From: Microbotryum violaceum
Lineage: Eukaryota
Assembly (NCBI GenBank): GCA_001244265.2
Contig: CDLV01000007.1
Location: forward strand, 496,001-560,000
Length of the DNA stretch: 64,000 bases
Reading direction: 5' to 3'
The notes under the pieces are model-generated. The model saw nothing but the letters and a program-made list of their open reading frames with translations. It had not been told where the DNA came from and did no database searches. Shown piece after piece: positions 1-11,859 of the stretch. The number at the start of each line of letters is the position of its first letter. Positions within the stretch are counted from its first letter, which is position 1. A program made the position numbers and the translations under genes.

Positions 1-1191
<1,191 letters not shown>

Positions 1192-1366
1192 GATGTGTGT
1201 ATGAAGAGTAGGTAGATGTGGTGTGGTGGGGGGTGAGTGCGCGTTGGGGTGTGTGTCAACTTGGGATGCAGTAAGTGAAATGTGTGGAAGGAGGGAAGGA
1301 GAGCCGACGTGAACGACCGGGACAAAAGTGACGACCGAACACGCGCGCGCACGGACCGCTCCCCAA

Positions 1367-1454
1367 TTCCTTCGATGAGATTCCACGAAGCACTCTCGGG
1401 TTCGCTTCGGGTCGATAGCATTCCACTCGCCTCCACGCGATTCCATGCCGTTCC
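1367..1454. promoter_or_regulatory. Candidate step-type heat-shock element array upstream of HSP70
   Basis: TTC at 1371, 1381, 1401, 1421, 1441 and 1451, with GTC at 1411 and CTC at 1431, in exact 10-bp phase 180-260 bp upstream of the HSP70 ATG. Confidence 0.6.
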
Positions 1455-1974
1455 ACCGGGCAAGAAAAGACGTTCACCTCGTTTCGCTTGGGATGGGGAC
1501 GTTGGACTTAATCGATAACGGTTCGGCACACCCGACCTGAACAGGATTTTTTTTTTGACAACTTCACAATTATGTACTACTATGTACTACCACGAGTTTC
1601 GGCTGCCGAGGCTTCTGGATCAGCAAGACTTGCTCCCTCTTACATATGTTGACAATGTGTGCGGTGTTCCTGTGTCGGCAATGCAAAAGATAGCGACGAG
1701 TGGCATTGCAAAAGATAGCCACCCTTTGAAAAATCAATGTGACAGGGGCCTCGATCGAGAAGGGTCGGCGCAGCTCGTCGCGTCTCGCCACGCCTCCAAA
1801 ATTTGAATGTGAGGTGAAGTACGTGAACGAGTCCCAAGAGTCGTCAGTCCACAAGCGTTTTTCTAGACGTTGGCATCGAAGGAAAAGCATGCTCGTGCAA
1901 GGAACCTCCTCGTCAACTCGACGCCGGCCGTCGCATTTCGTCATTTCTTGGCTGGTGCCCGCGCTCCCTGCCCG

Positions 1975-3517: not shown

Positions 3518-6500
3518 TCATCGCGAGGCTCGGCCGGACCGCTCGTGCTCCTTTTGAGCCTTTTTGGCTTCCTTCGCGGTCAGTCTCAACACCTCGAGCT
3601 GTATTTCGAAATGGCAAGTCGTGAGTGAGATGAACGACAAAATGCTATAGCACGAGGAACTAACCTCGAGGACGACCTGCTTCATCGATGGTCGTAGAGA
3701 ATGGTCTTGATCCCACATCACCCCGACGAGATCGAGAATATCACCACCCCATTGTCTCCTCATCGAAGCCGTCGAAGGTCGGATACGCTTCTGACCGACC
3801 TGCTCGTAGATGGCGTGCTCGTTCATGCCCTCAAAAGGGTAGCGCTTAACGGGCTGGTGCCACTGCAGTACCTCCCAAAAGACGAGACCGACGGAGTAGA
3901 CATCGACTTTTTCGTTGTACTTGGGGTGAGCGACCCAGAGCTCGGGGGCTTGCCAGTTGACGGTCCCGACGAGGGAGCGGATGACCGATCGGGTCGTGTG
4001 CTTGACTCGCGCCAGCCCGAAGTCGGCCATCTTGGCGACGCCTTGAGCGGTGATAAGCACGTTCGACGACTTGATATCACGATGAATAATGGTCGGTTTG
4101 CGCGTGTGGAGATACTCGACGCCGCGCGCGATGCCGAGCATGATGTCGATCATCGACGAGAAGGGCGGGTGAGGCACGCCTCGGATGTAGTCGAACAAGT
4201 CACCATTGGCGCACAGCTCGGTGACAATCATGACGGGGACCGTCGAAGGTTCTTTGGGGATCGAGACGCCGATAAAGTGCACGATGTTGGGGTGACGCAG
4301 GTCGCGCAAGAGACCGAGCTCCTTTATGTCCATTTCGGTCAGATGTCCTCGGATGTCGCAGATTGCGATCGTCTTGCGTCGGTACAACCCCTTGTAGACG
4401 TCCTTGAACCCACCCGAGCCAACTTTTTCAAGCTTGGTTAATTTTTCAGGGGCGATCTCCTTATCTTGAAGCTGCAGGCTCTCGAGGTCGAGACCGTTGA
4501 TCTCTTCAGTGATGTCGTTGAGCGCTGCAGCAGCACGCGACCGTCCTCGACTATGGGGCTTGTCAGGACTTCGCGAATGGCCTTGGCGCATGAGAAGAGG
4601 GGTTTCGGCATTACTGGCCACAGAAACGGTCACGGCTCTGCGTAATGCCTGCGACTTGGTCTCCGCACGCGCGGTTTCAGTCGAGGTGTTAGTCGCGTCG
4701 GACTGAACGGTCGACCCGCCAGACGAGTGGTCAAAGTCTGCGTCGCGCTGTGAGCAACTTCAAGGTGTCAGCGATGGCTCTCTGTGGAGAGATAGTACAA
4801 CAGTTTGCTCACCCATTCCAAAAGGGCCTGAACAAGCTCTTTCTTGGTCCCATCCCCCTGCAGCTCGCGTTCTTCGCATAAGCGTACCAAGTCGTCCTTG
4901 CGATGCCGCAACAAACTCTTGGACGTTGCGTTGGCAAGATCGACGTCTTCATCGTGAGCCATCTCCTCGTCTTCGTCTTCGTCTTCCTCTTCGTTTTCCT
5001 CTTCTTCTTCTTCCTTCTCCTCCTCCTCCTCGTCGTCGTCATCATCATCATCATCCCCGTCCTCAGTTTCCTCTTCCTTGTCGTCTGCCCGCTTACGTGT
5101 CCGCTTCCCTCCTTTTAGGGGTACGACCTTGCCGTTGCGCAGCTGCCTCGGCGCACGAAGGTACGAAGTGACCTCGGTGGTTTCTCGTTCCTCGTCCGTT
5201 TCGGAGAACACTGCATGATCAACGGCATCGTCGCCCCCACTTTCTTCGTCGGCGTCTGACGGAGTCGCCTGACTTGGCCGAATCTTCCTCGAAAGGCGAC
5301 CCGTACCAAACACGTCCTCATGTTCATCGTCGTCCTCAAAGTCGGAGTCCGGATTTGGACCCGTCCTCTCGTCCTGCGGCCAATCATCGTGGACGACCTC
5401 GCTGCGAATCGGCCGGCGCTGGGAATGCCTCTCGCCGCGCTTGACGATCTTCTCTACCGCTTTGGCTTTCGCGGCTCTTCCGGCGACTCCGTTCGGTCGG
5501 ATCGTGTCGGGCGGGGCGAGCGAGCCTCCTCGTGTCCGATGGGCGATGGGTGAGCTCGCGTAGTGAGTTTCGTCATCCTCATCAAACGTGACAGCCTTGT
5601 TCTTGCCCTTCGAGCTCTTGCTCCCGTTCCTCGTGTGTCGCGACGAGTTGTTCGCCTTGTCCAGCCCGTCGGCCTCGATCGTATGCGAATGCCGACGTGT
5701 CATCCTCCTCCCCGGTAACGAAGACGGGGTCACGACCGGAGACGCAGACGTCGAAGCATGTATGGGAACGACGTCGTGGCTCTGCCGTCGCGTCATCGGT
5801 CTTGAAGAGGCGCCGCCACTGACCTTGTAATCAGACGAGGAACGACCCCGTGTCGTCTTCTTGGGAGCAACAGCTTTCTCTACCTTGTAGTCCTCCGAGC
5901 TGGCGACAGAGACAACCGAATGACTTGTGGGGGGCGTGATGGCTCGACGGTCCTTCCTCGTTCGACCACCCCTTTGGGATCCGCTCGATCGCGCCTTCTT
6001 CCGAGGAGAACTACCGTCGTCATCGTCCGACTCGAGGGCAGGCGACGTCTCTTGGCTCGTGAAAGGTCGGGGCGAATCACGTTCCGAGTCCTCTTTGACA
6101 TCGCCGTCGGATTCAGTCGCGGAGATGGCAGTTTGGCCGCGTGTTTCAAGTAGCAGTGTAATGAGGTCGTCCTTGTGCAGTGCCTCGGCGTCTTCTTCCT
6201 CGGCACCAGATGCGATCCGATAGAGGCGCACAAGCTCGTCGCGTCGTAGTCGCCGCAGATGGGTCAATGTTGCCTTGTGAATGTGAAAGTGATCGTCTGT
6301 GGGAACAGGTCGCACTGCGGTCAGCGCGCCGTCGCACGAGGCCAAAGCAGTTTTCCAGCACAACGTACCTTCTGGTATCTCCTCATCAACATCTTCCTCC
6401 TCGGCATCTTCCCCTTCCTCTTCTTCCATCTCTCCGCCGTTCTCCCCTGCCTCGTCTCGATCCTCTTCCTCAGCTTCTTCATCCTCCACCTCGACATCCT

Positions 6501-6792
6501 GCTCCTCCTCCTCCCTTTGCTCCTCCTCCTCATCCGTCGTCTGCTCATCATAAAACCCCTTCGTCTGAGTCTTGTTCGTCGACCCCCTGCGTGCCCTCTG
6601 CTCACTCTCCAACCTCATTTCTTCATCCTCCGTCTCCTCGGGTACCTTCTTCCTCTTCTTCGCCGTGCCCGTGGAACCCATCAAAAGCGACGACGCGTTC
6701 GTTCGTGTCCCTCGAGGAAGGCTCGGGGCTGTCGTTCGGTCGAGAGGGAGACCTGCTGAGCCTCGCCGCGTCATGCGCACTGCGGCGGCCAT
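3518..6792 (-). CDS. TKL-like Ser/Thr protein kinase with acidic N-terminal region and SAP-like motif(s). Introns about 6297-6368, 4748-4812, 3599-3664
   Basis: Kinase motifs GSGGFK, HRDIKSSN, DFGLAR, GTVNWQAPE, DVYS and RPS. SAP-like LLRHRKDDLVRLCEERELQGDGTKKELVQALL. The splice joins keep the frame. Confidence 0.9.
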
Positions 6793-8008: not shown

Positions 8009-10057
8009 TCACGGCTTCTCGTAATCGGACGACGACTCGTGCTTCTTGGCCTCCTGCAACTTGCGCGCACCCTTCATAAAGTCATCTTGGATGCAGTAGT
8101 CGCGGTCATCACTGAATAACGGGAAATTGATGGTCAGGATTACAATTTGGGGAATAGGCAGATTGCAAGCCCAAGTTCACTCACCGAATGGCAAACATGC
8201 CCGCCTCGGTGCACACGTTTCGCAAATCGGCACCGTTGAACCCTTCCGACAACTTGACAATAGCCTCGTAGTCTATTTTGATAGTAAGATTTGCATCATC
8301 AGTTGCACATTCGACGGCATCCAGTTCAGACATGACAGACGCACCAATCTCGCCCGTCTTTCGAATCGGCCCCGCATGAATCTTGAGGATTTCCATTCGC
8401 GCGACTTCGTTAGGCAAGGGGATCTCGATCTTTCGGTCGATGCGACCAGGTCGCAGCAAGGCAGGGTCAAGAGTATCCGGCTGGAGAAAGAGTGAAATTG
8501 ACCGGGATCAACTCTCGATGTGCACGGGGGGGAATACACGAGGAAAAGGTCGGATCGGACTTACTCGGTTGGTAGCAAAGATGACCTTGGTCTTGCCGAG
8601 GTAGTCGAATCCGTCCAGTTGGTTCAAGAGCTGCAAAGACGGTACTCGGCAGTAGTTAATGCCTGAAATCGCGAGCTTCTAGGGCCCCCGTAAACTCACC
8701 TCCATCAGCGTCCTCTGAATCTCTCGATCGGCACTCGTCCCTTCACTGAACCGACGACCACCGATAGCGTCGACCTCGTCCATGAAGATGATACACGGTT
8801 CGTGTTCACGTGCATAACCGAACATTTCTCGAATTAAGCGTGCGGATTCACCAATGTACTTGTCGACGATCGCCGACGAGACGACCTTGAGGAAGTTGGT
8901 CGAGAGCGTCGCTGCAACAGCTCGAGCGAGCAGTGTCTTTCCTGTTCCCGGAGGTCCGTAGAGCAAAACACCTGTAGAGTAGATCGTAGCAGCAATGAAT
9001 TGTCAGGCCGAGCGTGAGTCCGTGCCAGTCCCGATCCAAACTCACCCTTTGGCGGCTTGATGCCGACTCGCATGAACAGCTCTGGATTCATCAACGGCAG
9101 CTCAATGACCTAGGAAAGACGTGTGCAGACAGGGATGAGTGTGTGTACATTCGTAAGAGACTGTTGAGCTCGAACGCACTTCTCGCAACTCGCGAATCTG
9201 GTCGCCTAATCCTCCGATCCCAGCAAAGGTGACCTCTCCCGGATCCTCCATGCTCATGTTGTACACCAGCGGATCGACTTCTCTCGGCAGGATCCTAAAA
9301 TGCGTGACACACGGGAGAAAAGTGAGCTGGTGCACACGCGAATGCGGCTGAAGTGCACGTTGCTGGAAGTGGAGGTGGTGACGCACCTCATGATGGTCAG
9401 AGTCGTCATGTCTAGCGAGACACGGACGCCGTTCTTGAGCTTGTGCTTGGGCACGGCTGATCGGCATCCTACCACGTATCGAGGTCCAGACGAGGCCTTG
9501 ACGATGACTGTGGATGAAGATGTCGAGGCATGAGTTTTCCCGGACGGTGTGCTGGTGGATCGCCTCCCCAGACTCGAACCCACATCGCTCTTCATCCAAC
9601 TGCTTCAACACCTCGCCGACGATTTGACCGACGGATTGGAGCGCCTTGATATCATCCTCTGACTTTTCAAAATCACGGTCGAGATCCTTGAGCGAAGCTC
9701 GAACTGCGTCAACGTCAACAGCGGTCGTCGTCGTCAGCGCTTCTGTCTCGGGCGTGGGACTCGCTGCTCGGCTATGGTGAGCTGGAGAGGACCGACTCTT
9801 CTTCAAGTTCTCAGTCAGGGTCTCGTGTTCCTTGAGTTTCTGTATGCAACGAAAGGATGGGAGATCAGTCGGGTGTCATCGAGTTGTGCCAGCTGGCTCC
9901 ACTCGCGTCGACGGACCTTGCGGTAGGCCTCGATCGCCTTGTCCTTGGGAGACGGTTCGGGCGCAGGGGCGGGGGCCTGTGCAGCAGCAGCAGCAGTAGC
10001 AGTAGGTTCTGTCGCGGTCGATGACGATGCAGCGGGTGTTTCCGAAGATGCGGACAT
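8009..10057 (-). CDS. RPT4: 26S proteasome regulatory AAA-ATPase Rpt4 (multi-exon)
   Basis: [35 protein letters not shown], Walker [60 protein letters not shown]. Confidence 0.96.
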
Positions 10058-10452: not shown

Positions 10453-11859
10453 AGTGAGTTCACCATCTGACTAAGCTGTAAGGCTGCACCCTCACCCAAC
10501 TGAACACGGTCTACGTCTACGGTCGCCCGGCGCGCGTGGCAGTGTCGTCCGCGAACCGACGAATCACCAAAGAGTACGCCGAGCTGCAAGCCGACTGGCC
10601 GCCGTACGTCGTCGCACAACCCGACGAATCCAACCTTCTCCACTGGGTCAGTCATGGTCTTCTACTCAGTCTCGTATTGTGCTTCGGCGTAGGAAACACG
10701 GTCGACGAACGGTCGTGAGGGGCTCGTGTCCGTTTTCGTTTCGATGCCGCTCATTCACTGACGTAGTGCGACCCGAATCAAAAAACCCTGCCCTGCCTTC
10801 GCACAACACGCGACACATCAAACAGACGGGCATCATCACCGGACCGCCCGACTCGGCCTACAAAGGTCAGTCATCGACAGTTGGTTGTGTCGTAGCTACC
10901 GACTCATCATCACCACCTCCGTCGCTAACCCCCTCAGGCGGCAAGTTCAAGATTGACATCACGTTCCCCATCGAGTATCCGTTCAAGTCGCCCAATGTAA
11001 GCCCCAAGTTGATCACCAAATTCCCTTTCCAAGCAAGTACTGACATGTACTTTCCCCCATCAGATCAGATTCGTGAGCCTTCAGTCCGAGAAAAGCCCGA
11101 TCGGGGTGCTCGCCCGGACCCGAGTCGAGCGCTCGGGGAGCTGACAGCCCGTCGTGACTTTGAAAAGGCCACCCGAATCTATCACCCCAATGTGACCGAC
11201 GACGGAGCGCTTTGCGTGGGAGTGCTCAAGGTCAGTCCACATCGCCCCTCACCTTCGAGCTCGGCGCGATCGGGGTGCGCAAAATCTGACCAGACTTGGT
11301 CACACAGGCCGAGGCATGGAAGCCCTCCACAAAAATCGATCAAGGTGAGACCGAGAAGATCGCTCTTGGGTCTGACACCGATTGCAGTCGACTGAACGGC
11401 CCGTTCGTGTGATGGAACAGTCCTTCGAGCACTCGTTCAATTGCTACAGGAACCGAATGGTTAGCCTTGATCGGGCTCGGAGCCGAGAATACCGGAAGAC
11501 ATGTGTAGCTGATATCGTTATACTTCCCCCATTCACAGCCGATGACGCCCTCGTGGCTACCATCGCCGAGGTGAGCCGTTCGCTGCTGCTTGGGGAACGT
11601 AAGGCTCATACAACGCGCTTGCAACCTTTTTCTGCTCGCAGCAATACACCAAAGACCGGCTTGCGTTCAACAAGACGGTGAGTCATCTCTAGATGTTCTG
11701 CAAATGATCCCCCGCACCCCCGACTCATCCAAGATCTACCTCGTTTTCTTCAGGTGCAAGAATGGGTCAAGAAAGTAGGTCGAAGGTCGTCATCACATCT
11801 TCCCTTTCAGCTCGAAAAGCTGATCAGAGACTTTGCACACCCTTCCACAGTATGCATGA
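10453..11859 (+). CDS. Ubiquitin-conjugating enzyme E2 (UBE2L3/UbcH7-like), about 12 exons
   Basis: Spliced MSSANRRITKEYAEL...NLLHWTGIITGPPDSAYKGGKF...[26 protein letters not shown]...WKPSTKIDQ...WVKKYA*. HPN motif and catalytic Cys present. Confidence 0.92.

Follow-up and report, generated by a model that had tools for sequence, protein, structure and literature searches.

A fungal and aphelid family of SAP-domain TKL-type kinases carries its lysine in beta2 and probably acquired it independently of WNK

The window analyzed here, 64,000 nucleotides of Microbotryum violaceum DNA (assembly GCA_001244265.2, contig CDLV01000007.1, positions 496,001 to 560,000 of the forward strand), carries near one end a protein kinase gene whose coding sequence runs on the minus strand from 6792 to 3518 in four exons and yields a spliced product of 1023 amino acids. 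This product is identical, letter for letter, to P0001, a Microbotryum lychnidis-dioicae record labeled "TKL protein kinase." Contigs from runs X6 and X10 over the exon hold 0 other letters, and on both grounds a sequencing or annotation artefact is rejected. All three introns are absent from contigs of X2 and X10, two runs from two studies; no run among those holding the gene is recorded as RNA, and the evidence for splicing consists of these intron-skipping contigs. Run X2 represents a related strain or species, in which all 27 kinase-domain differences listed are synonymous and one linker codon is changed (37 of its 42 exon 3 differences from the window were among those listed). The gene is single-copy in this genome (G000), where the next match is 31% identical.

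The kinase domain is C-terminal (residues 740-997 of P0001, with Pfam Pkinase covering 740-995), and the segment at 4352-4423 on the minus strand encodes its part from the Gly-loop to beta3. There the canonical lysine of the beta3 "VAIK" motif is missing, its site being occupied by Cys766, and a lysine, Lys751, stands instead directly behind the Gly-loop Phe in beta2, the position used by WNK kinases. The first-pass annotation of this DNA had read both codons, and both are as it gave them, with the surrounding motifs in place. The lysines of DLK and EGFR pair with Cys766 in alignment and strand E36-43 of the structure model agrees, so this residue marks the beta3 site. For this domain Pfam PF07714 and PF00069 score nearly equally, and the AlphaFold model (predicted local distance difference test, pLDDT, 87.7) finds its best fold matches among tyrosine kinases (TK) and TKL kinases. 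The features of the gene and of its surroundings are collected in Table 1.

Table 1. Positions in the window of the kinase gene, its domains and active-site residues, and neighboring features; fractions refer to the 224 family domains described in the text.
Feature	Position	Strand	Remarks
Exon 1	6369..6792	-	Start codon 6792-6790; N-terminus basic, then acidic low-complexity; translation matches P0001
Exon 2	4813..6296	-	Long Ser/Thr-, Lys/Arg- and Asp/Glu-rich region, SAP-like domain at its end
Exon 3	3665..4747	-	Linker and nearly entire kinase domain (from about 4438)
Exon 4	3518..3598	-	End of last kinase helix, short basic tail, stop codon
Introns	6297-6368, 4748-4812, 3599-3664	-	All GT..AG
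SAP-like helix-extension-helix domain, about residues 595-638	4813..4938	-	Putative DNA/chromatin tether
Lys751, beta2/Gly-loop lysine at the WNK position	4403-4405 (AAG)	-	Directly after Gly-loop Phe; 224/224
Cys766 at the canonical beta3 "VAIK" lysine site	4358-4360 (TGC)	-	Codon read; DLK/EGFR alignment
Glu779, alphaC glutamate	4319..4321	-	224/224
Catalytic loop HRDxKxxN (Asp860, Lys862, Asn865)	4061..4084	-	RD kinase, Ser/Thr type; Asp 220, Lys 220, Asn 221 of 224
DFG (Asp878, Phe879)	4016..4024	-	Phe at the WNK1 Leu369 position; 224/224
DFG motif segment	4024-4007	-	
Ser894, activation-loop phospho-acceptor candidate	3974..3976	-	Three residues before GT motif; Ser 175 + Thr 49 = 224/224
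APE motif segment	3967-3941	-	
Hsp70	1-1500		
Stop-to-stop frame, 242 codons	2476-3204		No Pfam match; faces the 3' end of the kinase gene
AAA ATPase	8100-10000		
Ubiquitin-conjugating enzyme	10475-11400		

This kinase belongs to a family of which 224 kinase domains were collected in three protein searches, each scoring at least 200 bits on the family's own profile with most of the profile covered, and with fragments dropped. The score gap is clear, since non-family domains reach at most 187 bits in the two sets checked; the 224 domains are related sequences, mostly cluster representatives, and not independent samples. The beta2 lysine is present in every one of them. It is absent from all 109 other TKL/TK domains whose loop can be read among the 181 examined, where no lysine follows the loop aromatic residue, indicating that it does not stand there by chance. 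Loss of the beta3 lysine by itself is not confined to this family, being seen in 8 of 128 aligned TKL/TK rows, none of which has the beta2 lysine. Apart from the moved lysine the active site is complete and almost as constant (Table 1): the few exceptions in the catalytic loop are mostly gaps, and the residue after DFG, at the position of WNK1 Leu371, is Leu in 220 of 224 domains.

The first-pass annotation proposed to look for the Gly-loop lysine and for a lysine/cysteine pair in basidiomycete orthologues. The lysine is retained not only there but back to aphelids; a conserved pair has to be given up, as the beta3 site holds Ala in 94 domains, Gly in 52, Ser in 50, Cys in only 27 and a gap in 1, and Lys in none. 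This site is mostly Gly in the deep branches of the family. Since it is always small but varied, the cysteine itself is incidental, and judging from the alignment the conserved trait is a beta2 lysine combined with a small beta3 residue, of which Cys is a late state.

The family is old and conserved, and reaches far beyond basidiomycetes. Within Basidiomycota, members occur in Pucciniomycotina, in Agaricomycotina including Tremellomycetes, in Ustilaginomycotina including Malassezia, and in Wallemia; Mucoromycota contribute Mucorales, Mortierella, Glomeromycotina and Calcarisporiella, Zoopagomycota contribute Basidiobolus, Coemansia and Massospora, and the aphelids Amoeboaphelidium and Paraphelidium have members as well. 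Early-diverging members are mostly proteins of 350-400 amino acids that consist of the SAP-like domain and the kinase, and the long charged region of exon 2 is typical of basidiomycete members. No named ascomycete or chytrid member appeared among the matches listed or in 30 record look-ups. In ascomycetes, the BLAST matrix for a probable Cryptococcus orthologue shows only values of 1e-16 to 1e-20 (PMC5052723), and loss of the family in Ascomycota is likely; the same matrix also missed Rhizopus, although family members occur there. The family has duplicated in some rusts: Puccinia coronata has two members, the long P0047, which has Ala/Ser-type relatives, and the shorter, divergent P0140 with Cys at beta3.

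N-terminal to the kinase lies a SAP-like domain, and SAP domains are DNA- or chromatin-binding motifs. The Pfam SAP profile (PF02037) exceeds its cut-off in 6 of 14 relatives scanned. When a profile was built from 18 early-diverging members, it detected a single copy in 195 of the 224 family proteins, with P0001 at 41.6 bits, and matched none of 200 control kinases; many of the proteins missed belong to Ustilaginomycotina or Wallemia or are short. The predicted model of a relative has a confident small helical domain in this region (pLDDT about 80). A second short helical-looking segment, at 6142-6273 on the minus strand (P0001 about 150-193), resembles the start of the SAP-like domain by eye and is likewise visible by eye in P0093, P0152 and P0163; the SAP profile gave it no score in any protein. 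At about 5122-5142, also on the minus strand (P0001 525-531), lies a short basic motif ending in LR[NS]GK that is found again in 115 of the 151 family proteins having a long N-terminus, within otherwise unalignable low-complexity sequence, and that is possibly a localization or docking motif.

Is this family a divergent branch of WNK? Our WNK sample started from a plant sequence (P0371, which scores 271 bits against human WNK3), to which 120 further matches, plant where named, and 80 metagenome loci were added, and was reduced to 22 rows. The two groups share the beta2 lysine after the Gly-loop aromatic residue, in a single alignment column (28/28 family rows, 22/22 WNK rows), and in both the beta3 lysine is gone; both are RD kinases that keep the alphaC glutamate and an activation-loop Ser. 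The first-pass annotation treated Lys in beta2 with Cys in beta3 as the definition of WNK, a definition too narrow for that family, in which the beta3 site is Asn in 21 of 22 non-animal rows and Cys in human WNK3. It was right that the rest of the domain is not WNK-like: the columns that set WNK apart from TKL/TK number 28, and the family agrees with WNK in 2 of them, one being the beta2 lysine, and differs in the other 26. Without the two lysine columns, the family carries on average 1.9 of 26 WNK-diagnostic residues, TKL/TK kinases 1.4 and WNKs 24.1; these residues include the Trp before the beta3 site, Cys-Asp in the catalytic loop and Glu-Phe before APE. The family also has DFG and not DLG, with Phe in all 224 domains at the WNK1 Leu369 position, which is Leu in 18 of 22 WNK rows, and an HRD-to-DFG spacing shorter by one residue (22 of the 23 family rows that can be read have 20, 18 of the 19 such WNK rows have 21). 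Its kinase domain follows the SAP-like domain at the C-terminus, and OSR1_C/CCT (PF12202), an autoinhibitory domain that WNKs have behind the kinase, is absent from P0001 and the 33 other family proteins scanned, a weak criterion because only part of the plant WNKs collected carry it. Membership in WNK proper was rejected on the diagnostic residues, and as judged from these residues the family is not part of WNK. A few true WNKs also have DFG in place of DLG (2 of 22 aligned rows plus L050; examples are P0371, L050 and L076), and are natural equivalents of the chloride-desensitizing change discussed below.

The body of the domain is of the TKL type, as the first-pass annotation had it. The best 60 PDB matches of the family profile are all TKL/TK kinases (CTR1, TNNI3K, BRAF, DLK, ZAK and tyrosine kinases) and include no WNK, the best being CTR1 at 221 bits, and DLK reaches 124 bits with the query alone. 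MLK, DLK and ZAK, RAF and CTR1, and TNNI3K are the closest by sequence, profile and fold, and in 13 of 17 TKL-diagnostic columns the family agrees with TKL, a count inflated by a TKL set that was gathered by similarity to the query. From these kinases the family differs in the replaced beta3 lysine, in the change of the beta2 Gly to Lys, in the SAP-like domain and in some 15 residues peculiar to the family, among them the NWQ segment that precedes APE. No TKL subfamily (MLK, RAF, DRK, LISK, IRAK or TKL-ccin) emerged as a supported sister in a comparison made without curated subfamily references, and the ESM Atlas returned generic TKL clusters only. Members P0093, P0026 and P0031 carry the label "TKL/TKL-ccin", an automatic one that denotes a Coprinopsis-based class and is a term occurring once each in five papers; the family itself extends over both fungi and aphelids, with a single copy in G000.

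A separate question is whether the family inherited its lysine from an ancestor shared with WNK. Trees were computed without the two lysine columns and with G000 kinases as reference (20 in a 198-row tree, 12 in a 59-row tree). FastTree on 198 rows places the family (support 1.0) inside TKL/TK (0.909) with WNK (1.0) outside; a quick IQ-TREE run under LG+C20 on 59 rows gives 99, 99 and 100 for the same groups by the Shimodaira-Hasegawa-like approximate likelihood ratio test (SH-aLRT), and the IQ-TREE LG tree likewise has the family inside TKL/TK and WNK outside. In every free tree the family is never inside or beside WNK, and forcing the two into one clade costs 35, 42, 14 and 30 log-likelihood units, the free tree being better each time. 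The approximately unbiased (AU) test is less clear-cut: it gives P = 0.096 under LG, P = 0.025 under the posterior mean site frequency (PMSF) model guided by the free tree, P = 0.26 under PMSF guided by the constrained tree and P = 0.21 on 198 rows, so that only the second of these runs rejects the joint clade; its outcome depends on model and guide tree. Thus the convergence claimed by the first-pass annotation stands as far as the free trees keep the family apart from WNK, and falls short where only one of four AU runs rejects a sister relation: it is favored, not formally proven.

The competing view makes the family and WNK sister lineages whose TKL-like ancestor already had the moved lysine, after which WNK diverged fast and the family survived, in fungi and aphelids only, as a conservative relic. 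It draws on the lysine lying in the same column as that of WNK, on the three AU tests that do not reject the clade, on the long WNK stem (0.94 changes per column), and on a constrained tree that nests the joint clade in TKL. All unconstrained trees prefer separation, and without the lysine columns the WNK-diagnostic residues are no more frequent here than in ordinary TKLs. Because WNK is found across eukaryotes, one origin further requires that the family was lost everywhere but in one lineage. True WNKs occur in microsporidia and cluster there with animal WNKs (PMC4280135, partial text), and one best match in Allomyces is annotated WNK8 (PMC5052723 supplement), indicating that the fungal lineage had WNK separately. 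We consider one origin quite unlikely and an origin of the beta2 lysine independent of WNK probable.

Does the kinase work? In WNK1 and POMK, both of them active, the lysine lies in beta2, and mutating it abolishes activity (PMC10211241 and PMC4718504, partial texts). By analogy, Lys751 would reach over ATP's alpha and beta phosphates as WNK1 Lys233 does, the beta3 site would have to stay small (Gly, Ala, Ser or Cys) to leave room for it, and Asp860, Asn865 and Asp878 would carry out normal Mg-dependent phosphotransfer. The RD motif together with an invariant activation-loop Ser/Thr suggests that phosphorylation of Ser894 switches the enzyme on. At the level of the active-site lysine the family would thus work as WNK does, having most likely arisen independently, and probably it is catalytically active. 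POMK (SGK196) is a published case of a catalytic lysine moved to beta2, the second after WNK (PMC10211241, partial text); it is a sugar kinase that has also lost HRD, DFG and the alphaC glutamate, and the family keeps all three.

The first-pass annotation expected that pipelines would mislabel the protein as a pseudokinase. The named records checked are labeled TKL, TKL-ccin or kinase-like, so that this has not happened to them, and a VAIK-based rule would flag the family nonetheless. Under a rival reading the family is a conserved nucleotide-binding pseudokinase: its beta2 lysine would keep ATP in place for a switch, structural or allosteric, with little or no phosphotransfer. MLKL-, ILK- and KSR-type domains act in this way; here no member has the canonical beta3 lysine, MLKL, a pseudokinase, heads the Foldseek list in a tie with many active kinases, and the knockout of a probable Cryptococcus orthologue is near-silent (see below). 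Pseudokinases usually erode some catalytic motifs. In this family the HRD Asp, the catalytic-loop Lys and Asn, DFG, the alphaC Glu and the activation-loop Ser/Thr persist in 220 to 224 of 224 domains, with a full Gly-loop, from aphelids to mushrooms, and the compensating beta2 lysine is invariant while HRD, DFG and the alphaC Glu show no erosion. We regard a pseudokinase as unlikely, and a domain that looks dead by the standard motif check is probably active.

A further view borrows the physiology of WNK as well: the kinase would sense chloride or osmolarity, as the first-pass annotation implied, and replace a WNK that we did not find in G000 by exon-wise search (best 32-37% identity). The moved lysine may free room for chloride (PMC7606576, partial text), and the Leu at the WNK1 Leu371 position is largely conserved. 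In WNK1, chloride sits at Gly370/Leu371 together with Leu369, and the change L369F lowers inhibition of this kinase by chloride and raises autophosphorylation (PMC7606576, partial text). Since the invariant DFG Phe of the family matches that desensitizing change, chloride sensing is unlikely here. No OSR1_C domain was found in the proteins scanned, and for deletion of the probable Cryptococcus orthologue all six tests with NaCl, KCl or sorbitol give a score of 0 (PMC5052723, partial text). WNK-like physiology as a whole therefore appears very unlikely.

The orthologue in question is Cryptococcus neoformans Ykl1 (CNAG_06671), probably a family member, as judged by descriptions and the pattern of matches and not by its own sequence. 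According to the partial text of PMC5052723, of the three genes that Kinomer assigns to TKL it alone bears the description "TKL protein kinase," it occupies a 3.9-kb locus, its InterPro list holds no ATP-binding-site signature, and its strong BLAST matches are only in basidiomycetes and Phycomyces. The "TKL protein kinase" P0150 of Cryptococcus depauperatus is a family member. Deletion of YKL1 is viable, and across 30 conditions only capsule, urease and resistance to peroxide change, and these weakly (PMC5052723, partial text), which may point to a role that is non-essential in vegetative growth. A match for WNK or pseudokinase did not turn up in the main text of that paper, as far as it was available.

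Taken together, the reading that we favor, as a reasonably likely one, is an ancient fungal and aphelid family of SAP-domain TKL-type Ser/Thr kinases that is active and whose lysine moved from beta3 to beta2 independently of WNK. Besides the AU results and the inflated TKL count given above, several points weigh against it. Fold searches separate TKL from WNK only unsharply: WNK3 is at Foldseek rank 9, and in sequence searches WNK1 is at rank 13 against PDB with 103 bits and a plant WNK search of G000 returns this gene as its second-best match (37% over part). The WNK sample in the trees holds no named animal or fungal sequence, and the tree searches were short, with FastTree values and SH-aLRT as supports and no bootstrap. 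The AlphaFold model is ligand-free and no side-chain geometry was read from it, so that it lends no support to a contact of Lys751 with ATP. P0001 reaches 16.1 bits with Pfam SAP, short of the 23.9 cut-off, and the near-silent YKL1 knockout offers no support for an important catalytic role. The weakest step is the cellular role: the SAP-like domain might tether the kinase to DNA or chromatin, in which case its substrates would be nuclear, and we hold this role as a nuclear, SAP-tethered kinase to be evenly balanced between right and wrong.

No link was seen between the kinase and the neighboring genes of the window (Table 1), among which the AAA ATPase is presumably proteasome-subunit-like. 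Elsewhere in G000, a second TKL-type kinase with the canonical beta3 lysine, which we take to be LIMK/TESK-like, is present in near-identical copies on different contigs (L007, G000:C1:2559805-2563125; L008, G000:C2:3235102-3238425), the L008 copy having DFD in place of DFG. Several other kinases occur twice, in G000:C1:3.22-3.32 Mb and G000:C2:3.78-3.91 Mb (L003 and L113 with the same translation; two 438-amino-acid frames), as expected if both mating-type chromosomes were assembled.

In the literature searched, a beta2 lysine shift in this family is not described; subscription papers lay outside the search, and prior notice is possible. A tree-of-life survey of pseudokinases (Kwon et al. 2019) may cover the family. 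Three papers on fungal and oomycete kinomes (PMC3937382, PMC2838846 and PMC3019232) do not mention the shift in the parts available. It is possible, if somewhat short of probable, that this pre-fungal and so far unrecognized family is the third independent case of a catalytic lysine in beta2 after WNK and POMK and the first in an otherwise textbook TKL domain, forming an active, chromatin-tethered nuclear kinase that persists in aphelids, mushrooms and the lineages between while ascomycetes seem to have lost it, and that it separates relocation of the lysine from chloride sensing.

What would this mean for protein kinases more widely? The beta2 lysine has so far been treated as a peculiarity of WNK linked to chloride sensing. 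If this last reading is true, the lysine has moved in a family without the Leu of the chloride pocket, and the vacated beta3 site would have been selected for another reason. With a second protein-kinase family, built on another scaffold and with DFG, it becomes testable whether a lysine in beta2 serves as an alternative active site of general use or is adapted to make an anion pocket. The short early-diverging versions, P0262 among them, suit such biochemical and structural work. The VAIK rule for calling pseudokinases would fail over a whole fungal clade, and this within TKL, the group reported to hold most pseudokinases.

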